In this document: positions 855-26,107 of the stretch, piece after piece
How positions within the stretch are numbered: position 1 is the stretch's first letter
Layout: every line of letters starts with the position of its first letter
Source of the DNA: Candidatus Saccharimonadota bacterium
Lineage (GTDB): Bacteria > Patescibacteriota > Microgenomatia > UBA1406 > GWC2-37-13
DNA: 32,000 nucleotides
Assembly: GCA_016699265.1 (NCBI GenBank)
Contig: CP064967.1
Span: forward strand, 896,689-928,688
Direction: 5' to 3'
Notes under the pieces: generated by a model
Database searches by the model: none
The model's input: only the letters and a program-made list of their open reading frames with translations
Told to the model about the DNA's origin: nothing
Program-made: the position numbers and the translations under genes

Positions 855-2039
855 ATGAAACTCACCGGAATCTCACAAAAAGCATTCCTCGATCGATATT
901 CGTTAAAAGATAAAAAAGGTAAACCTGTTGAAAAGACACCGGACCAAATGTGGCGTCGAATTGCAAAGTCAGTTGCCGAAATTGAAAAAAAACCTGCACG
1001 AAAACGTTGGGAAAAGGAGTTTTATGATGCTATGGACAACTTCAAGTATGTCCCAGGCGGACGAATCTTAGCCGGTGCTGGTACGGGATACGATGTAAGT
1101 TTTTATAACTGTTTTGTTATTCCATCTCCAAAAGATTCACGTGGAGGCATTTTAGACACTCTAAAACAGATGGTTGAGATTATGGCTCACGGAGGTGGAG
1201 TAGGAATCAATCTTTCATCACTTCGACCAAAAGGCGCTCGTGTTAGAAAAGTAAATGGTTTCTCCTCAGGGCCTATGAACTGGGCTGAGCTTTTCTCACT
1301 CGCCACTAAGGATATCATTCAGCAGGGAGGAACCCGACGCGGCGCTCTTATGCTTATGCTGTGGGACTGGCACCCTGATATTGAGGAGTTTATCACCGTT
1401 AAGCAAGATCTGAATAGAATTAATGGAGCCAATCTTTCACTCTGCATTTCCGATAGCTTTATGGATGCGGTAAAAAAAGATGCTGATTGGCCATTGGTTT
1501 TCCCCGACGTCACAGATCCTGAGTACGATGAAAAATGGAACGGCGACCTTGAGGTCTGGAAGAAGCTAGGAAAAAAAGTTAAGGTGCAACGAGTTGTGAA
1601 AGCTCGCTATATCTGGGATCTTATTGCGGAGGCAGCATGGAAGTCTGCAGAACCAGGAGTAGTGTTTATGGAACGCTACAACAAGATGCACAACAACTAC
1701 TACTGGAATCGCATCAACTGCGTAAATCCGTGTGGTGAAGAGGGTCTCCCAGCATGGGGAGTCTGTAATCTTGGCTCAATTAATCTATCGGCCTTTGTAA
1801 GTGGCAACGATATTGATAAAAAGGGAGTCTTTGACTATAAAGAACTCAAAAAGACAGTTGCTCAGGCAGTGCGTTTTCAGGATAACGTCGTCGATATGGA
1901 TCCGTATATATTTGAGGGGATCCGTGAAACACAGTTGAATGGAGAAAGAAGGATTGGACTTGGCACAATGGGCCTTGGGGACACATTAATCAAGATGCAC
2001 ATTAGATATGGATCACCCGGAGAGTCTCGAGTTCATTGA
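855..2039 (+). CDS. nrdJ: Adenosylcobalamin-dependent (class II) ribonucleotide reductase, N-terminal part (frame broken near 2016)
   Basis: Carries the RNR motifs NCFVIPSP, GGGVGINLSSLRPKGA, NPCGEEGLP and CNLGSINLSAF. The frame ends 7 codons after an apparent extra C in the CCC run at 2016..2018. Confidence 0.9.
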   Translation: MKLTGISQKAFLDRYSLKDKKGKPVEKTPDQMWRRIAKSVAEIEKKPARKRWEKEFYDAMDNFKYVPGGRILAGAGTGYDVSFYNCFVIPSPKDSRGGILDTLKQMVEIMAHGGGVGINLSSLRPKGARVRKVNGFSSGPMNWAELFSLATKDIIQQGGTRRGALMLMLWDWHPDIEEFITVKQDLNRINGANLSLCISDSFMDAVKKDADWPLVFPDVTDPEYDEKWNGDLEVWKKLGKKVKVQRVVKARYIWDLIAEAAWKSAEPGVVFMERYNKMHNNYYWNRINCVNPCGEEGLPAWGVCNLGSINLSAFVSGNDIDKKGVFDYKELKKTVAQAVRFQDNVVDMDPYIFEGIRETQLNGERRIGLGTMGLGDTLIKMHIRYGSPGESRVH

Positions 2040-3282
2040 GGAAATCTATAGACTTATTAGAGATGAAGCGTATAGGGCATCTATGGAAATCTCCCGTGAA
2101 AAAGGTTCGTTCCCTAAGTTCGAACCAGTTCCATTCTCTAAAGGTCTTTTCATTAAACAGCTACCTCAAGATCTACAGACTCAGATTAAAAAATACGGAG
2201 TCAGAAACTCTGTAATTTTGATGCAGGCTCCTACTGGAACAACGGCTCTCGTAGCCAACACTACCTCAGGAATTGAGCCTGTTTTCGAGTATGAGTTTAC
2301 AAGAAAGTCCCGTCTTGGCGAAGACATTATCAGACATCACCTATACGATCAGTGGTTTAAAAAGCACGGTGAAGCATTCAAGAAAGGTGAGATCGAAAAA
2401 CCAGAATACTTTGTATCCGCAAACGATCTTTCACCTGAGGACCATGTAAGAGTTCAGGCTATTATTCAGAAATACGTTGATGCCTCTATCTCAAAAACGG
2501 TTAACGCTCCCAACTCTCAAACAGTTGAGGATGTTAAGAGGATCTATACCTTAGCCTATGATCTTGGCTGCAAAGGGATTGCATATATGAGAGACGGATC
2601 GAGACAGGGCGTCTTAATAAGGAAAGAGGAACCAGTCGCAGTAAAAGCCGTTGAGGTTTCGACTACTCCACAGTATGCGGTTCACCCACGACCTATGGTC
2701 GTACAGGGCTCAACCTATCGTATGAATACCCCCGTTGGAACCGCCTTTATCACCATTAACACAAATGGTGGTGGGGAGCCTCTTGAGGTCTTTATTAATG
2801 TGGGCAAAGCCGGAACAGATGTCTATGCGATGGCAGAGGGATTGGGCAGAATCGTCTCATTAGCCCTTCGTTTTTCGTCACATCTTGCTCCTCATGTACG
2901 AATTAAGGAGATAGTTGATCAGTTAGGTAGTATTGGTGGAGCTCGTGCAATGGGCTTTGGGAAAGAAAGAATCAAAAGTCTTCCTGATGCTGTTGCCAAA
3001 GCACTCGCGATGCACTATCACCTAGGAGCCTATGCTGAAGCCCCAAATGCAAATGGTCACAGTAATGGAAATGGCCACGTTACAAATGGACATGGGTCTA
3101 ATCATGATGAGCCGAAACTTGTAACTGAGGTTACTCAGCCGATGCTTACAGCTGTTGCTCCAGTACCACCGCCAGTCGTCCACACTCAAAGCTTTGATAT
3201 ATGTCCGAGCTGCGGTGAAGCCTTATTGGCTCATGAGGAAGGTTGTACCAAGTGCTATGGATGCGGATTTAGCGCATGCTAG
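2008..3282 (+). CDS. nrdJ: Class II ribonucleotide reductase, C-terminal part (continues 855..2039 in the +1 frame)
   Basis: PESLEFIEEIY... follows directly on ...IRYGS of the upstream ORF once one base is removed. Ends with the Cys cluster CPSCGEALLAHEEGCTKCYGCGFSAC, typical of class II RNR tails. Confidence 0.9.
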   Translation: MDHPESLEFIEEIYRLIRDEAYRASMEISREKGSFPKFEPVPFSKGLFIKQLPQDLQTQIKKYGVRNSVILMQAPTGTTALVANTTSGIEPVFEYEFTRKSRLGEDIIRHHLYDQWFKKHGEAFKKGEIEKPEYFVSANDLSPEDHVRVQAIIQKYVDASISKTVNAPNSQTVEDVKRIYTLAYDLGCKGIAYMRDGSRQGVLIRKEEPVAVKAVEVSTTPQYAVHPRPMVVQGSTYRMNTPVGTAFITINTNGGGEPLEVFINVGKAGTDVYAMAEGLGRIVSLALRFSSHLAPHVRIKEIVDQLGSIGGARAMGFGKERIKSLPDAVAKALAMHYHLGAYAEAPNANGHSNGNGHVTNGHGSNHDEPKLVTEVTQPMLTAVAPVPPPVVHTQSFDICPSCGEALLAHEEGCTKCYGCGFSAC

Positions 3283-3284
3283 AG

Positions 3285-3408
3285 TGGTTGAAAAGTTATG
3301 AAGGTTGTAAAGTTAAAAAGCTTGTTAACTGGTTAATTAGTTAGCCGGTTAACCAGCATACTCACAAACAAACCTTTAAAAACCTGTAACTTTCTGAACT
3401 TTTAAAAT
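3285..3408. repeat. GTT/AAC-word imperfect palindrome filling the nrdJ-pduO spacer
   Basis: Left half has GTT about every 8 nt (ggttgaaa agttatgaa ggttgtaaa gttaaaaa...). Right half has AAC words (caaac aaac ctttaaaaac ctgtaac tttctgaac). The arms are approximate reverse complements. Shares agttatgaag and aaaacctgtaactttct[g/t]aac with the element at 21992..22120. Confidence 0.7.
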
Positions 3409-3413
3409 TATTT

Positions 3414-3923: not shown

Positions 3924-3925
3924 AT

Positions 3926-4057
3926 GCTGGTTTGGGGAATCCCGTGTAATTCGGGAACAGTGCCGCTACGGTGATGCCGGTGGTCAGCAATCAGGAGTCA
4001 GATCTCAGAACTGACGACTGAAAACTGAAAACTAGTTAGTCCGACTACCAAACAAGC
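3926..4057 (+). promoter_or_regulatory. Cobalamin riboswitch (candidate) in the leader of 4083..5204
   Basis: 3934..3976 reads ggggaatcccgtgtaattcgggaacagtgccgctacggtgatg. This is colinear with the conserved core of cobalamin riboswitches (AGGGAA-NCC-GUG-NAA-UC-GG-AC-G-CCGC-AC-GU-A, compare the E. coli btuB leader). AGTCAG, the start of a B12 box, lies at 3996..4001. A closing helix pairs gctggtttgg (3926..3935) with ccaaacaagc (4048..4057), 9 of 10 bp. The 3' half of the B12 box is divergent. Confidence 0.6.
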
Positions 4058-4082
4058 TCAAAACCCCGAGCAGGGAATATAT

Positions 4083-5606: not shown

Positions 5607-5609
5607 TGT

Positions 5610-5693
5610 CGTATATCGTATAAGGTATTTGGTATTTTGTATAAAATCCCACGCAAAAACATACGAGATACGTCATACGGTATACGAAATACG
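5610..5693. repeat. GTAT/ATAC heptad palindrome, empty copy 1
   Basis: Built as 5 x NNNGTAT-type heptads (cgtatat cgtataa ggtattt ggtattt tgtataa), a 17-nt centre, then 5 x ATAC heptads (catacga gatacgt catacgg tatacga aatacg). Fills the spacer between convergent stop codons. Confidence 0.85.
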
Positions 5694-5696
5694 AGT

Positions 5697-6020
5697 TTAT
5701 GAAGATTTCGCTTTTTGAATTTCTTTTAGGAATCCTTCTTTACCCATTGCACCAACGAACTGATTTACAACCTTACCATCCTTGAAGACGATGAATGTAG
5801 GAATGGAAAAAACGGAGAACTGCGACGCCACTTCAGAGTTCTGATCAACATCGATCTTTACAAAAGAAACGTCCTTAACCTCCTCAGATAACTGCTCGAT
5901 AATTGGCTCTGTCATCTTACATGGCCCACACCAAACTGCATGAAAGTCTACAAAAACAAAACCTTTTCGATCTAGTACGTCTTGTTTAAAAGTTGCCTGC
6001 GTTATATCCTTCGTGCTCAT
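5697..6020 (-). CDS. trxA: Thioredoxin
   Basis: WCGPC active site. ORF 5697..6098 trimmed to MSTKDITQATFKQ (ATG at 6020), which gives the canonical ~107-aa length and has aaagga upstream. Confidence 0.9.
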   Translation of the reverse strand: MSTKDITQATFKQDVLDRKGFVFVDFHAVWCGPCKMTEPIIEQLSEEVKDVSFVKIDVDQNSEVASQFSVFSIPTFIVFKDGKVVNQFVGAMGKEGFLKEIQKAKSS

Positions 6021-6042
6021 ATCCTTTATACTAACATTTGGC

Positions 6043-7017
6043 ATGCAAAATCGCAATAACCAAATAGACATTCTTAGAGGTTTCGGCATCATGGCCATGA
6101 TTCTAATTCATGTCACGGCGTGGCATAAATCAGATGTCATAGCTTCCAGTTTATGGAACATTTCACAGTTTGCCGTGCAGGTATTTATCTTCTGTTCTGG
6201 TTATCTTTTTTTCCTTAAAGAGGGAGCCGGAACAACCATTCATTCCTTAGGCTATTTCACAAAAAGAGCTACGCGCCTACTTATTCCTTACTTTGTCTTT
6301 CTTGTTTTTTATCTGCCACTTGAGTTTATTGAGGCACCAAAAAGATTGTCTTTAACTTACGTGTTAAAAAGTCTCACTCTCACCGGAGGAACAGATCTCA
6401 ACTGGATAATTCTTTTATTTTTAATACTCGCAGTCCTCATGCCTTTGCTATTATTTCTTCTTCGCAAACACCGCTTTATGTTTTTCATCTACCTTCTCTT
6501 CGCCACTTTCTCTGCTGCTTTATTTTTAAAATTAGAAATTAAAAATTACAAATTCATCGCATGGCTTCCTTGGTCTCTCATGATTCTCGTATCGTGGTTT
6601 TTTGTTAAGTTTCATAATCGTCTGACACTGCTCTATGTATTCATTTCCAGTACGGTAACCGCGCTCATATTATCCTTTTATCTTTCGGTTCAAAATCATT
6701 CATTGGTATTTTTTGATAATAAGTATCCGCCAAATCTTTACTATCTTCTGTATGGAGTTGCATGGATTTCTGGTCTCTGGTTTGTTTTTAGCTTTATAGA
6801 TCTGGAGAAAAAAAGATGGGACATTGTACGCATCTTCAGCGTTAATTCCTACTCAATATATTTCATTCATTTCTGGATCTTTACATTTATTAGGGTCGTT
6901 CTAAAGTCAGATCTTCACTGGGGATATTTATTTGCGATAGTTATGATCTCATCTGTTCTGGTACAAAAGACCTTTAACGCATTCGCCAAAGCTAGGACTA
7001 CCTTGTCTCCACGTTAA
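6043..7017 (+). CDS. Acyltransferase-3 family integral membrane protein
   Basis: MQNRNNQIDILRGFGIMAMILIHV is the family N-terminal signature, followed by about 10 hydrophobic segments. Start moved to ATG 6043 to avoid overlap with trxA. Confidence 0.8.
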   Translation: MQNRNNQIDILRGFGIMAMILIHVTAWHKSDVIASSLWNISQFAVQVFIFCSGYLFFLKEGAGTTIHSLGYFTKRATRLLIPYFVFLVFYLPLEFIEAPKRLSLTYVLKSLTLTGGTDLNWIILLFLILAVLMPLLLFLLRKHRFMFFIYLLFATFSAALFLKLEIKNYKFIAWLPWSLMILVSWFFVKFHNRLTLLYVFISSTVTALILSFYLSVQNHSLVFFDNKYPPNLYYLLYGVAWISGLWFVFSFIDLEKKRWDIVRIFSVNSYSIYFIHFWIFTFIRVVLKSDLHWGYLFAIVMISSVLVQKTFNAFAKARTTLSPR

Positions 7018-8656: not shown

Positions 8657-8666
8657 GGTTTCATTA

Positions 8667-8748
8667 TATCGCGTATCGTGTATCGTGTATCGCGCATCTC
8701 AAGAGCGTCCTTGCGTTAAACGTTACGCGATTTGCGTTTCGCGACGTA
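8667..8748. repeat. TATCGYG-word heptad palindrome
   Basis: Left arm tatcgcg tatcgtg tatcgtg tatcgcg (8667..8694). Right arm cgcgatt tgcgttt cgcgacg (8726..8746) pairs with it, including G-U positions. Fills the spacer between two minus-strand genes. Confidence 0.7.
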
Positions 8749-10396: not shown

Positions 10397-10420
10397 ATAA
10401 GTATGATAGCACAGATGTAA

Positions 10421-10587
10421 TTTCAAAGCTCAAATGTCAAATAAAATCTGAAGCCAAAAGCTAGAACTTTTAAATTTTAGGTTTTTAAATTTATTTGATA
10501 TTGGGATTTTGAGTTTAATGCAGTTTGATGTATTGCATAATTGTGTATATGTCATTATTATTTGTGCATAAGTTATCCACATATACA
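10421..10587. other. Candidate oriC / dnaA promoter region: AT-rich tract plus DnaA-box cluster
   Basis: Perfect DnaA box TTATCCACA at 10573..10581. An inverted box tgtgcataa (TTATGCACA on the other strand) at 10563..10571. A one-mismatch box at 10542..10550. The tract 10460..10500 is very AT-rich. All lie directly upstream of dnaA. Confidence 0.65.
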
Positions 10588-13220: not shown

Positions 13221-13670
13221 TTAGAGTTCCTCTATCTTATCTTTCTTATGGGGGGTTTCTTTAACCAAGCTTAAGAAACGCTCGGTTGAAGAAAGACGTT
13301 TGTGGCCAACTATTTTAGCAATATAGTCTATAGAGTATCCAGCCATGAGTTGATGCGCTATAAAGGTATTTCTAAAGTCGTTGATAGTGGCATTTTCTAT
13401 ACCAACCTCCTTAAAACACCTCATAATTATCTGGCGAACATTTCTAATAAGCAAACCTTTACCCGTACGAGTCACAAATAGTAAATCGTCAGGAGATGTC
13501 TGGCTGCCTCTTACTGCTAGATAGTCATCAATGGCTTTTTTAACAGATGGACTAAGGGGAACCTCTCGCCCAGAGCTCTTACCATAGCCTCTCACAACTA
13601 AAGCGGAGTCCTTAACATCCGATACGCAGATACTTGTAAGCTCACCAATTCTCACGCCGGTTTGGAGCAA
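13221..13670 (-). pseudogene. Xer-type tyrosine recombinase, catalytic-domain fragment (frameshifted, nucleophile Tyr replaced)
   Basis: LLQTGVRIGEL carries the first catalytic Arg. NDFRNTFIAHQL stands in place of HxLRHTFAT, and GHKRLSSTERF in place of GH...T..Y. The fragment is separated from the N-terminal domain by a frameshift at 13715..13716. Confidence 0.75.
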
Positions 13671-14086
13671 TATCTCAACAACGGCATAGGTTCGAGGGTC
13701 TTCTTTGGCAACGTCCTAATTGCACGGTACTCTAATTTACTAAAAATACGAGGCGGTGTCTGGATATATTTTGGGTGAGAAACTTCTAGGGATGGATTTT
13801 GTTCAATTATATTTGAGCTCTTGAGGTGCCTAAAAAATGTGCGTATTGAGTTGAGCTTTCTTGAGGCGGATTTTTTAGTGTAGTTTTCGGTAATTAACTT
13901 AGCGATAAACCCTTCAATTTCAGGTTTTTTTACATCGCGAATATCATTTATCTCTCTTGAAGACAGGTATCCGATAAACTGCTCTAGGTCCTTTTTATAT
14001 GCAACTATAGTGAAGCTAGATTTGCCCTGAGACTGTAGCTGGGCAACAAACTTTTCTACAAGCGCTGGGAAGATATATCCATCCAT
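13652..14086 (-). pseudogene. Xer-type tyrosine recombinase, N-terminal core-binding (SAM-like) domain fragment
   Basis: FVAQLQSQGKSSFTIVAYKKDLEQFIGYL...SASRKLNSIRTFFRHL is the typical phage-integrase N-terminal domain. The alternate frame continues DVAKEDPRTYAVVEILLQTGVRIGEL. Confidence 0.75.
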
Positions 14087-15314: not shown

Positions 15315-15315
15315 A

Positions 15316-15332
15316 CGCCGAAGGCGATTTTT
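15316..15332 (+). terminator. Weak intrinsic terminator after rpsA
   Basis: cgcc-gaa-ggcg, a 4-bp stem followed by ATTTTT. The stem is short, so support is weak. Confidence 0.3.
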
Positions 15333-15344
15333 AATTCTTCATTA

Positions 15345-15416
15345 AAAGATTAACGCATTGCGAATTACAGTTCGTTAATCCGTTAATTCGTTAATTATCC
15401 AATCGTAAATTACTGT
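15345..15416. repeat. CGTTAA-word octad element
   Basis: ttcgttaa tccgttaa ttcgttaa (15371..15394, exact 8-nt period), followed by ttatccaa tcgtaaat. The upstream partner gattaacgc attgcgaa ttacag holds the complementary TTAACG word. Confidence 0.45.
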
Positions 15417-15427
15417 AGACTGAAAGT

Positions 15428-18674: not shown

Positions 18675-18725
18675 CTTCATTGTATAATTATCTTCACTAA
18701 TGGGTTTACCTTGAGCGGAAGCGAA

Positions 18726-18798
18726 GGGCCTGTGGCGCAATGGCCAGCGCGTCTCTATGGCATAGAGAAGGTTACGGGTTCGAGTCCCGTCAGGTCCA
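18726..18798 (+). tRNA. tRNA-Ala (anticodon GGC)
   Basis: Hand-folded cloverleaf. Acceptor GGGCCTG/CAGGTCC with the G3:U70 alanine identity pair. D stem GCGC/GCGC. Anticodon stem TCTCT/AGAGA with loop ATGGCAT. T arm ACGGG-TTCGAGT-CCCGT. CCA is not encoded. Confidence 0.9.
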
Positions 18799-18803
18799 CA
18801 ATT

Positions 18804-18812
18804 TGATATAAT
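18804..18812 (+). promoter_or_regulatory. Extended -10 promoter element ahead of tRNA-Lys
   Basis: TGATATAAT matches TGnTATAAT exactly and lies 33 nt upstream of the tRNA 5' end. Confidence 0.4.
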
Positions 18813-18844
18813 GAAGTTCTTCTAACCGATAGAATTACGTTCCT

Positions 18845-18918
18845 GGGCCCCTAGCTCAACTGGTTAGAGCAGTAGCCTTTTAAGCTATTGGTTCTGGGTT
18901 CGAGTCCCAGGGGGCTCA
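18845..18918 (+). tRNA. tRNA-Lys (anticodon UUU)
   Basis: Hand-folded. Acceptor GGGCCCC/GGGGCTC. D arm GCTC-AACTGGTTA-GAGC. Anticodon stem GTAGC/GCTAT with loop CTTTTAA. T arm CTGGG-TTCGAGT-CCCAG. CCA is not encoded. Confidence 0.9.
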
Positions 18919-18944
18919 CAATATTCAGATTGTCATAACGCTCT

Positions 18945-19085
18945 ATGCCAATCCCGGTATGGACATTAGGTATAGAAAACTTCAAACAGCCAAGAGTGGC
19001 TTACGCACTATTTTTTATGATGGTAGTATTGGCGAGCGCGTTTATGTGGAGGAGCCAAAAAAAAGAAGTTAGCCCACTGACGTAG
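18945..19085 (+). CDS. Possible 46-aa single-TM peptide
   Basis: Unlisted small ORF MPIPVWTLGIENFKQPRVAYALFFMMVVLASAFMWRSQKKEVSPLT, with one hydrophobic helix followed by basic residues. No Shine-Dalgarno site. Speculative. Confidence 0.2.
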   Translation: MPIPVWTLGIENFKQPRVAYALFFMMVVLASAFMWRSQKKEVSPLT

Positions 19086-19101
19086 ACCTCGTAGGTCTAC
19101 G
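19081..19101. terminator. Hairpin between the convergent small ORF and TPR gene
   Basis: cgtagacct-cgt-aggtctacg, a 9-bp perfect inverted repeat. The A8 run at 19067..19074 gives a U-run on the minus transcript, but about 6 nt beyond the stem. Confidence 0.4.
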
Positions 19102-19110
19102 GAGGGTAAA

Positions 19111-19512: not shown

Positions 19513-19516
19513 GTGT

Positions 19517-19621
19517 TTCGTATACGGTATAACGTATGACGTATTTCGCCTGCCTGCCGGCAGACATGTATATTGTACCTAATCTCAATACGTTATACGA
19601 AATACGGTATACGGAATACGA
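19517..19621. repeat. GTAT/ATAC heptad palindrome, variant with GC-palindrome centre
   Basis: Left arm ttcgtat acggtat aacgtat gacgtat (19517..19544). Right arm aatacgt tatacga aatacgg tatacgg aatacga (19587..19621). The 42-nt centre contains the perfect palindrome ctgccggcag (19554..19563). Occupies a divergent intergenic region. Confidence 0.8.
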
Positions 19622-19633
19622 TATAATGAAAAT

Positions 19634-21988: not shown

Positions 21989-21991
21989 AGG

Positions 21992-22120
21992 AGTTATGAA
22001 GTTGCGAAAGTTGAAAGTTAGAAGGTTTGTTTTATGGGTTTGTCGGTTAACCAACAAACCAGTTAACCAGTTAACGCGCTAACAAACTTTCAAAACCTGT
22101 AACTTTCTTAACCTTTAAAC
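21992..22120. repeat. GTT/AAC-word imperfect palindrome, second copy
   Basis: Left arm agttatgaagttgcgaaagttgaaagttagaaggtttgtt, right arm aacaaactttcaaaacctgtaactttcttaacctttaaac, centre rich in ggttaacc/agttaacc. Same family as 3285..3408. Confidence 0.7.
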
Positions 22121-22128
22121 CAAAGTGT

Positions 22129-22503
22129 ATGATTAAATCTTTTGAAGCTACTTTAACCAAACGAACTGAGTTAACCCACGACATTAATCTATTTAACTTT
22201 GAGATTGTAAACGATACGCTGCAGTTCCTCGCCGGACAGTATGTAATCATGTTGATAACTTTTCCTGATGGGACGGTAGCTCGGCGACTTTACTCGATTT
22301 CAAGCGAATCCCAAAACACAAAAAGTTTCGATCTACTTGTAAAGAGAATTCCAGGAGGTATGGCATCAAACTATCTGGCGGGACTTCCGATTGGAGGGAA
22401 GGTTTCTTTTCAAGGACCAGCAGGGGTCTTTTCTATGAAGGACAGCGATCCTACCAAATCAAAGGTTTTTAGCGACGAGTACGGGTATTGCGCCGATCTA
22501 TAG
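22129..22503 (+). CDS. FNR-like FAD/NAD(P)-binding oxidoreductase, FAD-binding half (frame broken at T-run 22466..22470)
   Basis: RLYSISS (the RxYS FAD motif), GGMASNYL and a beta-barrel pattern. The frame ends 10 codons after a T5 run. Confidence 0.8.
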   Translation: MIKSFEATLTKRTELTHDINLFNFEIVNDTLQFLAGQYVIMLITFPDGTVARRLYSISSESQNTKSFDLLVKRIPGGMASNYLAGLPIGGKVSFQGPAGVFSMKDSDPTKSKVFSDEYGYCADL

Positions 22504-22504
22504 T

Positions 22505-22882
22505 ATGCTAAGGTCCAGAATTTTGGATGGTGTAACCAATGAAAAATGGTATCTCTTTTGGGGGGCACGAACAAAGAACGACCTACACTGGGTAAAGGAA
22601 CTGGAGGAGATGCGGCGAAAGAATCCATCTTTTAAGTATTCATTCTGTCTCTCGAGAGAGTCGGACCCTTCACAGAAAACAATGCCACCTGAGTGCGCGT
22701 TGGGGCGAATAGATGCCAGTTTTCAAAATGACATTTTAGAGTCGGTAAAAGGGAACACAGAGCTCCTTAATGGATATGAGTACTACATCTGTGGAAGTAT
22801 TAATGCGGTTGAGACGCTCCGTCAGTCACTCATCGGCGAAGGAGTCGAAAAGAAGAATATACACTCGGAGAAATTCATTTGA
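22505..22882 (+). CDS. FNR-like oxidoreductase, NAD(P)-binding half
   Basis: The same frame read upstream gives FLATSTGIAPIYSMLRS (GTGIAP-type nucleotide-binding motif), then LFWGARTKNDL and YYICGS. It joins the N-terminal half if the T5 run is read as T6. Confidence 0.8.
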   Translation: MLRSRILDGVTNEKWYLFWGARTKNDLHWVKELEEMRRKNPSFKYSFCLSRESDPSQKTMPPECALGRIDASFQNDILESVKGNTELLNGYEYYICGSINAVETLRQSLIGEGVEKKNIHSEKFI

Positions 22883-22917
22883 CTCGTATACGGTATTTGG
22901 TATCTCGTATTCCGTAT
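22883..22917. repeat. Left heptad arm flanking the four-helix-bundle gene
   Basis: ctcgtat acggtat ttggtat ctcgtat tccgtat, with GTAT at an exact 7-nt period, five units. Abuts the ORF stop codon (22918..22920). Confidence 0.85.
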
Positions 22918-23283
22918 TCAGGACTTTGTTTGGGAGGATTTCAATAATCCATTAAGTAATTTATGGACTCTCACAGTTTTTTCTGCAAACTGTCTGAATA
23001 TCACATCATTGAAATAGTGCAGATCTCTAGCTATAAGCAATTGGTTCTGTAATTCGGCGACTGATCCGATTGAGATCGTATAGAAACGATTTTTATCGGC
23101 TGATGTTCTTTTGTAGAATCCTTCGGCAACGTTACTTGTAATGGAAACGACCGCTCTTCTGAGTTGGTCAATTAGTCCATAACGCTCATGTTTTGGAAAA
23201 TGATCTGTAGCTTTGTAGATTTCTATTACCAATTCGTGTCCAATTTTCCATGCGTCTAAGTGGGTAAATGAACGAATCTTCAT
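22918..23283 (-). CDS. Four-helix-bundle protein (23S rRNA intervening-sequence protein / Avd-like family)
   Basis: MKIRSFTHLDAWKIGHELVIEIYKATDHFPKHERYGLIDQLRRAVVSITSNVAEGF...SIGSVAELQNQLLIARDL is the classic signature of this family. Start trimmed to ATG 23283. Confidence 0.9.
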   Translation of the reverse strand: MKIRSFTHLDAWKIGHELVIEIYKATDHFPKHERYGLIDQLRRAVVSITSNVAEGFYKRTSADKNRFYTISIGSVAELQNQLLIARDLHYFNDVIFRQFAEKTVRVHKLLNGLLKSSQTKS

Positions 23284-23315
23284 ACGAAATACCTTATACG
23301 ACATACGGAATACGT
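23281..23315. repeat. Right heptad arm flanking the four-helix-bundle gene
   Basis: catacga aatacct tatacga catacgg aatacgt, with ATAC at an exact 7-nt period, five units. It is the reverse-complement partner of 22883..22917. Its first three bases are the ORF start codon. Confidence 0.85.
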
Positions 23316-23373
23316 TGTCTACGGACTATATGCTACAAAACATCAAGATCGGAGCGTTCTAAAAGGCGGTAGC

Positions 23374-24240
23374 CTAGAATGATGTGAAGAAAAACTCAGC
23401 CGGTATCTGTGGATACGACTGGAAAAGTTGTACCTTCTTAGTAACTCCTGTTCTTGTTGTGGCTTGTGAGGTCACTGTTTGTCCCGATGCCTGTAAGGTG
23501 CTTGTTCCCACAAGTCCAAGGGTCGTGCTTGAAGGCCCACCGATTGAGATATATCTTACGATGAGAAAACGTGGATTGGAGGCAATGGTCACGGGTATAT
23601 TTGAGGTTCTGCATCGATAGGTAGTTCCATTCACCGTTGAGGAGGATACGCTTCCAATCTGTGTTCCAGATGAGCTAAAGTTATTGCCCGTGTCTGCGAT
23701 GTATCTCGTAACTCCCGTAGTTGTCACGACAGCTATATCAAGGACCATGTTATTGCAGTTGGCGCTACCAGAGACATCATAGGCGATGCTTACGTTATTA
23801 TTTGACGCAGGATTTGAGATTAACTTGGTGACGCTATTATAGGAGCCAAGATAGAACGTGAAGCCCTCGCCAGAGGATAGAGAAGGTGAGACAAACTGCG
23901 CGCTCGCTGCGGAGGTTAAACTTGTTGAACCAGAGGTAATTGTTGAGGAGAGACTACCGATACTGGATAGATTGGCTATATTTGATCCGCTCTTTAAGGA
24001 TGCTTCGATGCCTGCTTCTGCTGCGGCTAGAGCTTTCTGGTTCTCCTCTTCAAGTTTGGTAAGTTGAGTATCGGTCCTTGCGGTGAAGGTAATGGTTAAG
24101 ACGATCGTGATGGCAATAGCCATGATCATAACCATAATTAGTAGAATCTGACCGGCTTGGTATGCCGTATTTAGTATATGGTATCTCGTATCTAGCAGAT
24201 TGTTTTTTCTTATGTTTGTGTTTTGGTTTGGTGTTTTCAT
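23374..24240 (-). CDS. PilX/TadG-like pilus-associated protein (N-terminal hydrophobic helix, Ser/Thr-rich beta body)
   Basis: QAGQILLIMVMIMAIAITIVLTITF resembles the PilX_N / TadG N-terminal helix, followed by a short coiled segment and a Ser/Thr/Gly-rich domain. The first ~28 codons run through a heptad element, so the start is uncertain. Confidence 0.5.
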   Translation of the reverse strand: MKTPNQNTNIRKNNLLDTRYHILNTAYQAGQILLIMVMIMAIAITIVLTITFTARTDTQLTKLEEENQKALAAAEAGIEASLKSGSNIANLSSIGSLSSTITSGSTSLTSAASAQFVSPSLSSGEGFTFYLGSYNSVTKLISNPASNNNVSIAYDVSGSANCNNMVLDIAVVTTTGVTRYIADTGNNFSSSGTQIGSVSSSTVNGTTYRCRTSNIPVTIASNPRFLIVRYISIGGPSSTTLGLVGTSTLQASGQTVTSQATTRTGVTKKVQLFQSYPQIPAEFFFTSF

Positions 24241-24272
24241 ACGATATACGGTATATGAAATACTAAATACTC
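24157..24272. repeat. GTAT/ATAC heptad palindrome bracketing the start of 23374..24240
   Basis: Left arm ttggtat gccgtat ttagtat atggtat ctcgtat (24157..24191). Right arm catacga tatacgg tatatga aatacta aatactc (24238..24272). The 46-nt centre holds the first codons of the ORF. Confidence 0.8.
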
Positions 24273-24274
24273 GT

Positions 24275-26107
24275 CTACTGAATCTGAGTCCAGCTTGAGC
24301 GCAAAACTGATAATTTATCGATCAAGTTTACGTATGAGACAGGATTAAAAACGATAAATAAAGATGGCGCAGAAGTTCCACGATTTCGGGTCATAGCAAC
24401 CGGCGTTGAGGACGTGACATTTCCTGTAATCTTCAAAGGAGTTGTGCTTGAGGAAAGTTCGGAAAAGGCAATGGTGTCTGCGATAAATAGACCATTAGCC
24501 TGAGTTAACGAGTCGCCAAAGGTAAGCGTCTTTGGGGTTGTAGACGTACCTGCGACCACCAAGGCAAAGGGTCGATCAAAGATATTGAAGGACTTTGTGA
24601 ATCCACCTGTTCCCCTAAGTGTAACGTTGCCATTTACAATCAATACTACATTGCTCGGCGCGATATCAGAGGAGATAGTAAGATCTCCATTATAGTAGTA
24701 GAGCCCTGAGACAAGTATCTGAGACAGATCTGTTACGGTCGTCACACTCTTATTAGTCATCACATAGCTTTTGAAAGATGAGGCGGTGAATGTGCTGGGG
24801 ATAGTAGTATTTGCACGACTCCACCCCGAGGAGGAGACGGTTCCTGTCCCCACGTTTATACTCCCAATTGCAGCAACAATACCTGAGGCTCCCTGATTAA
24901 AGATTGTTGGAGAGGTATCTGAGAAGTCGTAGATGGTTGATAAAGGAGTAATGGTTGAAGAAAGATTCCCTAACTTATAGAAGGATGCGTCTCTAAGTTT
25001 ATAGAGTGCTCCTGGAACGGCCGGCGTAGTAGGTGTGGGCGCCGCTACTGTTGGAGTGGGAGTTGGAGTTGAACCTCCAAGACAGGTAAACGTATTGCCG
25101 ACGGTTCCTGGGGAGGTGCAACCTAAGCTATTGCAGCTATGCACCCACCAACTATACGTATTATTAAGGGCTCCGATAAATGAATACGCCGGACTGCCTT
25201 GCGTTGCACAGAAGTCTCCTCCTCCGCTACAGGTACCATCCCAACCACCCGTTGTTGTATTATTTACTCGCAGTTCGTAGTATGTGTCGCTTGCTCCTGG
25301 AGTCCATGAGAGATTTACTGTGTTGGCGCCATTACATGACCCGATAAGATTGGTCGGCGGCACTGGAGGGACTGGGCCGACAGGTGTTGGTGTTGCCCCA
25401 GCGGGGGGAGTAGGAGTTGGCGTTGATCCGGAAGGAGGAGTAGGTGTGGCTGAGCAAGCAGCCCCTATATATATCCAGCCCCCCGTCGAGCCATTACACT
25501 GAGATGTTCTACACGTTCCTCCTGCATCTGGTGATCCACAAACTACCTGTCCAGGAGAAGCGACTACCGAACTTCCATCACATAATGTTCCGGAGCAGTT
25601 TTGTGGTACCGGAGTTGCGGTTGGCTTAGGGTCGGTTGGAGCCGCACATGAGCTTGAAGAGACACATCTATACTTAGTCTGACATACTGAGGTGGCGGTA
25701 GACGATGATTGTGTCTGCTGCATTTCAGTACTGGAACATGAGCCACCTCCACAGCTCTGATCGGTCCAAGGTCCATAGGGACAGGCCGAACATACCGGAA
25801 CAAGTCCGAGTGCATTTATTTGAACCGAACAGCTTCTTGTGCCTGCGGTACAAGCTCCGAATTGACAATACTCAGGACCTGGTTGAATATTTCCAATACA
25901 CGCACCGCCTCCCCAGAAGCAGGATACGGTGTCAGTGCCAGTTGAATTAATACATCCATTACTGCATCCTTTATTACTCGGACATTGTGATTTGTTTACG
26001 GTTTGTCGGTAATAATCATCTCCACACGATTGGGCAAATGTGACTTTTGGCAAAAGAATAACCGTGAACGAAGCGAAAATAATGAGTATGATTCGCGATA
26101 ATATCAT
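24275..26107 (-). CDS. Large secreted Cys-rich surface protein with Pro/Thr linkers, an FN3-like module and a beta-rich C-terminal domain (putative adhesin)
   Basis: Signal peptide MILSRIILIIFASFTVILLPKVTFAQ. About 250 aa with many Cys, including a TSP1-like GPWTDQSCGGGSC. Linkers TPTPPSGSTPTPTPP. NLSWTPGASDTYYELRV is FN3-like. The C-terminal repeats are of the type VVLIVNGNVTLRG / GLFIADTIAF. Confidence 0.7.
   Translation of the reverse strand: MILSRIILIIFASFTVILLPKVTFAQSCGDDYYRQTVNKSQCPSNKGCSNGCINSTGTDTVSCFWGGGACIGNIQPGPEYCQFGACTAGTRSCSVQINALGLVPVCSACPYGPWTDQSCGGGSCSSTEMQQTQSSSTATSVCQTKYRCVSSSSCAAPTDPKPTATPVPQNCSGTLCDGSSVVASPGQVVCGSPDAGGTCRTSQCNGSTGGWIYIGAACSATPTPPSGSTPTPTPPAGATPTPVGPVPPVPPTNLIGSCNGANTVNLSWTPGASDTYYELRVNNTTTGGWDGTCSGGGDFCATQGSPAYSFIGALNNTYSWWVHSCNSLGCTSPGTVGNTFTCLGGSTPTPTPTVAAPTPTTPAVPGALYKLRDASFYKLGNLSSTITPLSTIYDFSDTSPTIFNQGASGIVAAIGSINVGTGTVSSSGWSRANTTIPSTFTASSFKSYVMTNKSVTTVTDLSQILVSGLYYYNGDLTISSDIAPSNVVLIVNGNVTLRGTGGFTKSFNIFDRPFALVVAGTSTTPKTLTFGDSLTQANGLFIADTIAFSELSSSTTPLKITGNVTSSTPVAMTRNRGTSAPSLFIVFNPVSYVNLIDKLSVLRSSWTQIQ

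Follow-up and report, generated by a model that had tools for sequence, protein, structure and literature searches.

A 32,000-nt stretch from a genome of the Microgenomates group (Patescibacteria), which is close to GCA_044224595.1, was analysed with respect to a small four-helix-bundle gene that is framed by two arrays of 7-nt units. This stretch is called the window in the following, and the coordinates of the cassette formed by the gene and its arrays are positions in it. The neighbourhood lies near dnaA and dnaN and adjoins type IV secretion-like genes. The direct neighbours of the cassette are protein genes, in the order 288-aa gene, cassette, FAD/NAD oxidoreductase gene. The cassette itself comprises the following features:

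22883-22917: left arm (3′ arm in the sense of the gene); the plus strand reads (NNNGTAT)5, i.e., ctcGTAT acgGTAT ttgGTAT ctcGTAT tccGTAT, and the minus strand (ATACNNN)5, starting right behind the TGA stop
22918..23283, minus strand: four-helix-bundle gene of 121 codons, PF05635/TIGR02436 ('23S rRNA intervening-sequence protein')
23281-23315: right arm (5′ arm in the sense of the gene), five heptads; the plus strand reads cATACga aATACct tATACga cATACgg aATACgt and the minus strand ac GTATtcc GTATgtc GTATaag GTATttc GTATG
23316..23390, minus strand: leader separating the 5′ arm from the stop of the upstream 288-aa gene, swapped along with the cassette in an alternative allele

Structure of the cassette

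All cassette coordinates given in an initial annotation of this DNA were reproduced by rechecking the sequence, including five NNNGTAT heptads on the left (22883-22917) and five NATACNN heptads on the right (23281-23315). As had been claimed, the minus-strand open reading frame (ORF) exactly fills the space between the arms. Its stop codon is the TCA at 22918-22920 (TGA on the minus strand), flush with the left arm, and its ATG is the CAT at 23281-23283 with which the right arm opens; the last heptad of the 5′ arm contributes the AT of this codon. This start is favoured by alignments of the homologues (M-K-I-x-S-F; here MKIRSF...); the longest ORF uses a second in-arm ATG at 23304, which results in an alternative product of 128 aa.

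Each array is built from five units of 7 nt, in each of which three positions besides the GTAT core are free. The two arms had been described as complementary in register, which applies to the 4-nt GTAT/ATAC cores but mostly not to the 3-nt spacers, except in an 11-bp helix formed by the two innermost units. With at most one mismatch, GTATNNNGTATNNNGTAT was found 33 times in the window, compared to 0.12 expected matches. Arrays of at least four identical 4-mers occur 12 times at period 7 and once at period 8, whereas arrays of at least four units were found neither at periods 5, 6, 9, and 10 of the window nor in shuffled sequence. In total, eight of the 10 GTAT arms in the window have five units.

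The observation of an ORF framed by heptad arms is real and far beyond chance. It is well supported that 22883-23315 represents a complete copy of a compact cassette that goes with PF05635/TIGR02436 genes in many phyla, and that this cassette is an ORF of about 120 codons whose start and stop codons form part of two inverted arrays with short periodic units.

The encoded protein

The gene product was assigned to PF05635 by a Pfam profile search (115.4 bits, cut-off 33.8, E=1.8e-33) and to TIGR02436 with NCBIfam (108.4 bits, cut-off 24). The AlphaFold2 model (predicted local distance difference test, pLDDT, of 94.8) has four helices and the up-down four-helix-bundle fold of Xcc0516 and BT_0352. 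Using Foldseek, template modelling (TM) scores of 0.9 to 2GSC (Xcc0516, 42% identity) and 0.79 to 2RLD (BT_0352) were obtained; the Avd structures 4DWL and 8UB7 are more distant (0.75-0.78). The entries of the relatives 2GSC, 2RLD, and 4DWL contain five chains each, and the window protein may accordingly assemble as a homopentamer as well. It is basic (isoelectric point 9.8), like its homologues (median of 9.5 for 80 proteins).

The product stays below the cut-offs of the Avd profiles (bAvd 22.9 bits vs. 40; DivGenRetAVD 23.6 bits vs. 80). Among the 26 window ORFs scanned, no reverse-transcriptase domain was detected, and no template or variable repeats were seen in the window. The Rfam search of the window returned two tRNAs as its sole matches, hence no rRNA gene, and nothing at the gathering threshold at any arm or hairpin. 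This agrees with the initial annotation, according to which neither an rRNA gene nor a reverse transcriptase is present at the locus.

The same design around homologous genes

Starting from the protein, a scan of species-representative genomes yielded 80 Patescibacteria loci, 79 of which have an adjoining array of at least three units. A lack of paired periodic arms at the other four-helix-bundle genes of the lineage had been named beforehand as counter-evidence; what was found is the opposite. For 77 of the Patescibacteria homologues, the lag-7 autocorrelation amounts to 0.50 and 0.51 in the two flanks and 0.24 inside the gene. Upstream, the cores are GTAT, GAAT, or GTAG, and the downstream arms have the complementary ones. 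The last upstream unit merges with the ATG (GTATG, GAATTATG), and the stop codon continues into the unit that opens the downstream array (TAATAC, TAATTC).

At 58 of the 80 loci the cassette has the same direction as both neighbours, and in 71 of 77 cases that of the upstream gene, the gaps being about one arm long. Co-direction with the upstream gene and arm-long gaps indicate a promoterless insert in operons. A scan with consensus promoters and terminators detected no promoter for the window gene, and no intrinsic terminator (G + C-rich stem followed by a T run) was found at any arm in 22700-24400.

Outside the Patescibacteria the same polarity was observed, the upstream array being G-containing and purine-rich and the downstream one its complement. 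In Nostoc, a homologue between two ribonucleotide reductase genes is flanked by (GGGAGTA)n and (TACTCCC)n, and in Picosynechococcus the cassette is located between cas10 and cmr3; the occurrence of PF05635 ORFs inside cas operons has been noted previously (PMC3936711). The arm design was also found in Geminocystis, Stanieria, Leptolyngbya, Riemerella, and Gemmatirosa. Overall, the arrangement spans five phyla plus an rRNA intervening sequence (IVS). Perfect tandem arrays occur in cyanobacterial and viral examples, and the window arrays conserve four of seven positions.

Arm-seeded search and number of units

For the reciprocal search, metagenome contigs were scanned for three GTAT units, a gap of 340-370 nt, and three ATAC units without any protein information. 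The 120 stretches obtained contain the following between their arms:

54 of 120: a PF05635 gene
48 of 120: non-coding composites of nested heptad arrays
11 of 120: another ORF of at least 75 aa, of which about six are real small genes lying between two separate hairpins
7 of 120: simple tandem arrays

The small genes between two hairpins include those for SemiSWEET, DciA, and AtpE. In the 405 kb comprising the 67 loci without a PF05635 gene between the arms, none was found elsewhere with a narrow, Patescibacteria-based profile. The GTATG start fusion is present in 32 of the 44 cassettes analysed in detail, and in 37 of them the stop codon is adjoined or overlapped by ATAC. Exactly five units were counted in 71 of 96 arms of this set and four units in 16 of 96. 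In the protein-seeded set, the unit counts likewise climb to five and then collapse.

Each of the 48 composite loci (among L230-L349; e.g., L230 1181-1585 and L349 1339-1740) is a non-coding stretch of some 400 nt between closing GTAT/ATAC arms. Inside, arrays of other heptads are nested, together with GC-rich hairpins such as GTAGGGGCACAATGAATTGTGCCCCTAC, which gives the impression of hairpins inserted into hairpin loops. Furthermore, 118 GTATx5 stretches from viral contigs were considered as the same element and rejected. In the 80 stretches analysed, neither a paired arm within 800 nt nor a PF05635 gene was found, and the spacers are mostly identical; as simple tandem repeats lacking both, they represent a different phenomenon. 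Within the Patescibacteria loci, 113 arrays that do not adjoin PF05635 genes were counted in about 247 kb.

Exchange of the cassette between strains

At the slot of the window locus, the GTAT cassette (type A) is present in at least eight samples and a second type (type B) in at least eight others. The type B gene encodes a different PF05635 protein of 133 aa (38% identity) with period-8 AGTT/GTT arms, and its ATG is also fused to the last unit (AGTTATG). Between the two types, the flanks have 99-100% identity to within about 20 nt of the replaced segment (~22870-23390), from where it falls to about 40%. In the leader (23316..23390), only the short stretch tatatgctacaaaa is common to both alleles. 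The polymorphism of the cargo between strains that the initial annotation had asked to look for thus exists, as an exchange of gene and arms together between nearly identical flanks.

Relatives of the type B protein (sub-family B) in other Patescibacteria mostly have period-8 GTTAA(C/T) arms, one of them having period-7 GAGTTAC arms. This arm type is that of the ORF-less elements at 3283, 15340, and 21989 of the window. Since A with period 7 and B with period 8 occur in the same species, period and core follow the protein sub-family and not the host. Nearby ORF-less arrays match the core type of the local cassette (21:3 vs. 2:13, Fisher p = 6e-6). In strain L011 (779-870), a GTAT hairpin replaces the CGTTAAT element upstream of the PrgI-like gene, a site occupied by loaded cassettes in several further lineages.

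No hypervariability between strains was observed for the arms, with one single-nucleotide polymorphism (SNP) in nine sequences. An insertion of the ORF into a pre-existing host hairpin was rejected for the window locus because the arms change with the gene. The short-read contigs L001-L006 carrying this gene are at most 1.7 kb long and end 35-197 nt upstream of it, which suggests that the repeated arms break assemblies.

ORF-less copies in the window

The arm design had been listed for four further loci (5610, 13137, 19517, and 24157) with short distances between the arms. All four were recovered as GTAT hairpins without an ORF:

5608..5695: five + five units, 18-nt loop; fills the gap between two convergent stop codons
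13135..13215: 18-nt loop; between the convergent dnaN and integrase genes
19513..19626: 43-nt loop; fills a divergent intergenic region
24157..24270: 47-nt loop; between two minus-strand genes, with the start remnant GTATGAAAA retained

The hairpins of the window fold with z-values of -4 to -7, for example -30.1 kcal/mol (z -4.1) at 5608 and -45.4 kcal/mol (z -6.8) at 19513. The latter is kept in strains L007-L012, and its right arm stops 7 nt short of the ATG of a 784-aa coupling-protein gene. GTAT elements occupy intergenic gaps almost to the base, regardless of whether the neighbours are convergent, divergent, or in tandem. CATACGA is the inner heptad at four of the five GTAT loci, as stated in the initial annotation. 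The copies at 5608 and 13135 agree at 76 of 80 positions (95%), spacers and loop included; the inverted arms are present, and no direct target-site duplication is visible at either copy. It is well supported that the four hairpins are ORF-less members of the element family of the cassette, and equally that at least two of them arose by copying.

The pilin-like ORF of 288 aa (23374-24240, minus strand) is affected by the last of these elements. Its called start is the GTATG remnant inside 24157-24270, and about the first 30 codons consist of translated heptads (…LLDTRYHILNTAYQ…). Translation probably starts further in, near MVMIMAIAITIV.

Occurrence in an rRNA intervening sequence and in Xanthomonas

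In Azospirillum lipoferum 4B, a homologue is located inside a 23S rRNA gene (Rfam large subunit match 2292-5490 in L099). The arms of this IVS, CAGAGGA CGGATGA CAGAGGA CGGAGGA and TCCGTCC TCTGTCT TCTGTCA TCCGTCT, are heptad-periodic and pair over about 32 bp, with three G·U pairs and a single A·C mismatch in the stem. With a genuine 23S IVS having a PF05635 ORF within like arms, and with duplicated ORF-less copies in the window, the earlier interpretation as a free-standing IVS-like cassette with loaded and empty members gains support. IVSs are regarded as selfish elements whose terminal inverted repeats are cut mid-stem by RNase III, with excision established for Coxiella, Leptospira, and Salmonella, and no function has been assigned to their ORFs (PMC4990558). 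PF05635 ORFs have also been reported in rRNA insertions of Patescibacteria (bioRxiv 10.1101/2024.02.27.582315). A mention of periodic arms was not found in the IVS literature consulted.

The Xcc0516-type gene of Xanthomonas is located between accB and accC and is flanked by heptads of the GGGAATC type, which pair in register with one mismatch per unit. A strong enrichment of this repeat in Xanthomonas has been reported, X. campestris having 186 sites and 70 convergent pairs, and no function was found for it (Rehm et al. 2015, PMC4692102); Xcc0516 is not mentioned in that study. Likewise, no connection to the PF05635 family is made in the study of the TAACTGA repeat (MacGregor 2015, PMC4679880).

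Cyanobacterial heptamers, the short tandemly repeated repetitive (STRR) sequences, were reportedly described by Mazel et al. in 1990. A stated link between the PF05635 family and periodic repeats was not found in the literature search, and such a link appears to be undescribed. The remark in the initial annotation that no description was known therefore holds for the cassette as a whole in the literature searched, but not for its parts, IVS ORFs and Xanthomonas heptameric repeat pairs being known.

Pairing and conservation of the arms

For the window cassette, an arm duplex of -27.3 kcal/mol is predicted, in which the 11-bp helix of the two innermost units covers the AU of the AUG. This is consistent with the earlier suggestion that the arms could sequester the start codon. 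Many homologous cassettes have near-perfect stem segments of 20-37 bp, and cognate arms pair better than non-cognate ones (14.3 vs. 8.9). The mismatches between arms comprise 51 G·U, 51 A·C, and 129 others, so that the sense-strand wobble bias expected of a selected RNA stem is absent from this set (51 vs. 51). The best pairing register is scattered from -3 to +3 units, and the in-register complementarity of the spacers is weak (0.69 vs. 0.54 for the null). Across classes of Patescibacteria, where the proteins are about 60% identical, the cores persist and the spacers drift. Together with the unit number of five, the direct arrangement of one pair of flanks, and the period that differs between sub-families, the kept cores, the scattered register, and the absent wobble bias are features usually seen in arrays of protein-binding sites, such as those of TRAP, HutP, omega repressor, and ParG. 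As a further explanation, heptads that place stop codons in all frames were considered; this fits some cassettes, but not the window arms, and was rejected.

Proposed mechanism and alternative explanations

The best explanation at hand is an IVS-type cassette whose arms are arrays read by the encoded protein, a reading that we favour as a whole at a level just short of an even chance. Within it, recognition-site arrays for the encoded protein would be the most likely explanation of the periodicity. Conserved cores with free spacers, the lack of a G·U over A·C bias, and the pentameric relatives point to such arrays, and protein recognition is supported by the fact that the sole constant companion of the arrays is a basic protein with pentameric relatives.

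In the proposed scheme, the cassette would ride on a host transcript, normally read in the same direction as the upstream gene. The 5′ array overlaps its own AUG, and the complementary 3′ array would fold back, close off the ORF, and occlude the start codon. This fold-back stem would be of the kind that RNase III cuts in rRNA IVSs, which is proposed to make the insertion harmless to its neighbours. The basic protein, putatively a homopentamer as in the solved relatives, would take up one unit per subunit, five 7-nt units corresponding to 35 nt, and would bind the G-containing strand, the one that reads inward from both sides. By occupying its own leader, the protein would control the expression of its gene, and at ORF-less copies its binding would compete with hairpin formation. 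Such a scheme would resemble TRAP and HutP on RNA arrays, and the genomic organisation would resemble a RAYT gene with its REPIN hairpins.

Several observations weigh against this reading. The stem of the window cassette is poor outside the two innermost units, and in Pseudanabaena the 14 units of the cassette are arranged as direct and not as inverted arrays. No covariation between protein and core was found when GTAT- and GAAT-flanked genes were compared: the identity is 61% between the classes and 61-66% within them, and no residue discriminates them. As these proteins are indistinguishable, a base-specific reading of position 2 is unlikely. Furthermore, the five units and the conserved cores could have been inherited from one ancestral cassette, which is feasible since unequal spacers suppress slippage. 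From the literature, the number of units differs elsewhere, being mostly four in the Xanthomonas repeats and up to 26 in Nostoc (PMC4692102), and polymerase slippage has been named as the cause of the excess of heptameric repeats in bacteria (cited in PMC4692102). The protein encoded by the Coxiella IVS was reported not to be made in vivo (PMC4990558).

A pure RNA module, in which the arms matter just as a fold-back stem, would need no reading of the arms by the protein: RNase III would excise the cassette RNA, the stem would hide the AUG, and the periodicity would be a by-product of homogenisation by slippage or template switching. We regard this as unlikely, although much of the architecture fits. 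It is shared with a true IVS with a near-perfect 32-bp stem (three G·U, one A·C), mid-stem cleavage of IVSs by RNase III was shown experimentally (PMC4990558), many cassettes have near-perfect stems of 20-37 bp, and the sense orientation within operons fits co-transcription. A bias of slippage toward heptamers has moreover been proposed (PMC4692102). A stem, however, constrains complementarity and not sequence, yet the cores (G-W-A-K or GTTAA) persist across proteins of ~60% identity whereas the spacers drift. Nor does such a module fit the equal numbers of G·U and A·C mismatches, the register scattered over -3 to +3 units, the direct flank arrangement in Pseudanabaena, the period that is 7 or 8 depending on the protein sub-family in a single species, and the sharp peak of the unit number at five. 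Constraint that is symmetric on both strands (G·U = A·C) speaks instead for the DNA level, where the arrays could be terminal or sub-terminal repeats of a mobile element bound by a trans-acting recombinase or transposase, with the four-helix-bundle gene as a passenger or accessory and the hairpins resembling transposable elements of the miniature inverted-repeat kind (MITEs). Duplicated copies, the replacement of a whole segment between strains, assemblies that break at the arms, and the nested hairpins of 48 metagenome stretches, which suggest insertion into hairpin loops, are in line with this. It is nevertheless quite improbable in our view: no transposase consistently adjoins the cassettes, no target-site duplication is visible at 5608 and 13135, and arms differing by at most one SNP among strains give no sign of ongoing activity. 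A passenger would also not be expected to be almost the sole protein-coding cargo, as PF05635 is.

Finally, the heptad hairpins could be ordinary intergenic repeats or terminators of the host, with the gene merely lying between two of them. Heptad arrays are indeed common away from PF05635 genes (113 non-adjacent arrays in ~247 kb), and a few other small genes (SemiSWEET, DciA, AtpE) lie between two hairpins. Such a coincidence would hardly produce arms at 79 of 80 homologues, start and stop codons fused to the arms in 73-84% of the cassettes, arms that change together with the gene at one locus, and the same arrangement in five phyla and an rRNA IVS. The arms also lack an intrinsic-terminator signature. 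This explanation is already contradicted by the comparative data and is given hardly any weight.

The reading of the arms by the encoded protein can be extended to a wider claim, which we consider rather unlikely as it stands. PF05635 proteins would then be dedicated partners of bacterial heptad repeats, a basic homopentamer reading five units (7 nt in sub-family A, 8 nt in sub-family B), and the gene would make up, with the dispersed hairpins, a system like REPIN/RAYT or TRAP that extends from Patescibacteria to Xanthomonas and cyanobacteria. If this dedicated partnership is true, it would provide a function for the '23S rRNA IVS protein' family and for the orphan heptamer repeats (STRR, GGGAATC, possibly TAACTGA). 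The former has had no assigned function since 1993, and heptameric intergenic repeats have been on record without a function since 1990, first from cyanobacteria and then also from Xanthomonas and Beggiatoaceae. With the repeats being the arms of the gene's cassette across phyla and in a real rRNA IVS, the two puzzles become one question, namely whether the pentamer binds the array. In practical terms, the arms mislead start-codon calling, explain the presence of the PF05635 gene inside cas, acc, ribonucleotide reductase, and secretion operons, and probably break short-read assemblies.

Other features of the window

Besides the GTAT elements, the window contains further periodic inverted elements with other cores, which were absent from the earlier list, and other heptad arrays:

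3283..3413: ORF-less element with AAGTT/AACTT outer arms (period ~8) and GTTAAC-type inner units; arm type of the sub-family B cassettes
3984-4008: TCAG heptads
8657-8748: heptad pair with an ATCG core, TATCGCG TATCGTG TATCGTG TATCGCG facing GCGTTAA ACGTTAC GCGATTT GCGTTTC
10400-10524: TCAAAnn/nnTTTGA heptad arrays directly upstream of dnaA
15340..15427: period-8 ATTAACG/CGTTAAT inverted element upstream of the PrgI-like gene
21989..22128: second ORF-less AAGTT/GTTAAC-type element

The elements at 3283-3413 and 21989-22128 are composite periodic palindromes with the inner arrays GTTAACTG GTTAATTA GTTAGCCG GTTAACC, and their arm type is that of the alternative cassette allele of L008. Between the S1 gene and the PrgI-like gene (15315-15427), a canonical small GC hairpin with a T run precedes the period-8 ATTAACG/CGTTAAT element. 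The arrays upstream of dnaA may belong to the replication origin or represent a further hairpin family; an element very like them was observed in an unrelated Saccharibacteria contig (L075 2171-2271). Downstream of the cobalamin adenosyltransferase gene (3924-4082) there is a structured-looking leader, for which no Rfam family was found at threshold and which ends in four TCAGnnn units followed by TGAnnAC units resembling the published TAACTGA repeat. The heptads AAATTAG AAATTAA AAATTAC AAATT (6529-6554) lie within ORF 6013-7017, the coding status of which is doubtful due to its overlap with the thioredoxin gene on the opposite strand.

Three genes of the window are split into two overlapping or adjacent ORFs and are intact in related strains, which suggests indel errors in the assembly or recent pseudogenes. 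These are the genes for the FAD/NAD oxidoreductase (22129-22882; 251 aa in L001-L012), a tyrosine recombinase (13221-14086; 288 aa in L007), and the class II ribonucleotide reductase (855-3282). The gap at 18675-19110 holds tRNA-Ala and tRNA-Lys within 437 nt; in a related genome (L007 7953-9477) it measures about 1.5 kb with a called 400-aa major facilitator superfamily (MFS) gene, the strains differing by an indel of about 1.1 kb.

Comparison with known systems

The Avd proteins of diversity-generating retroelements (DGR) share the fold and probably the pentameric assembly, and Avd is part of an RNA-protein complex (8UB7). The window protein differs in scoring below the Avd cut-offs, and the window has neither a reverse transcriptase nor template or variable repeats. 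In the REPIN-RAYT system, a gene is likewise flanked by inverted repeat copies that are also dispersed as intergenic hairpin doublets, often between convergent genes, and the repeat type matches the resident gene. In contrast to RAYTs, the window gene belongs to PF05635 and encodes a four-helix bundle without HUH/Y1 motifs, and its repeats are periodic arrays, not single palindromes. To our knowledge, no nuclease activity is known for a PF05635-type protein.

TRAP and HutP are ring-shaped proteins on periodic RNA triplets, and omega repressor and ParG bind 7-8-bp DNA arrays. Common to these systems and the window arrays is a short core that recurs at a constant distance, the spacers in between being free. 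In the window, the unit count would correspond to the subunits of the oligomer, and the arrays overlap a regulatory hairpin or start codon. None of the four proteins is homologous to PF05635, for which array binding is put forward here as a proposal.

The heptameric repeats GGGAATC, TAACTGA, and STRR are intergenic 7-nt arrays as well, often in convergent pairs able to form stem-loops, and are transcribed; the Xanthomonas repeat forms the arms of the Xcc0516-type gene. Published accounts treat them as G-quadruplex formers or translational signals, without a four-helix-bundle gene (PMC4692102, PMC4679880). By the measure of perfect or near-perfect 7-nt copies arranged head to tail, the window arrays differ: they have period 7 with four of seven positions conserved, each unit being a 4-nt core with three free positions and not a perfect tandem copy.

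The closest likeness is found in the IVSs of Leptospira, Coxiella (S23p), and Alphaproteobacteria, which have a PF05635 protein encoded between stem-forming terminal inverted repeats and a sporadic distribution; the arms of the Azospirillum IVS are heptad-periodic like those of the window cassette. The window copy is located between protein genes and not in a helix of an rRNA gene, the two tRNAs being the sole Rfam matches. It has the terminal inverted repeats able to form a stem, with just the cores pairing outside the 11-bp inner helix. Taken together, the comparison supports the view that the window element is a free-standing variant of the ORF-bearing 23S rRNA IVS, accompanied by ORF-less derivatives.

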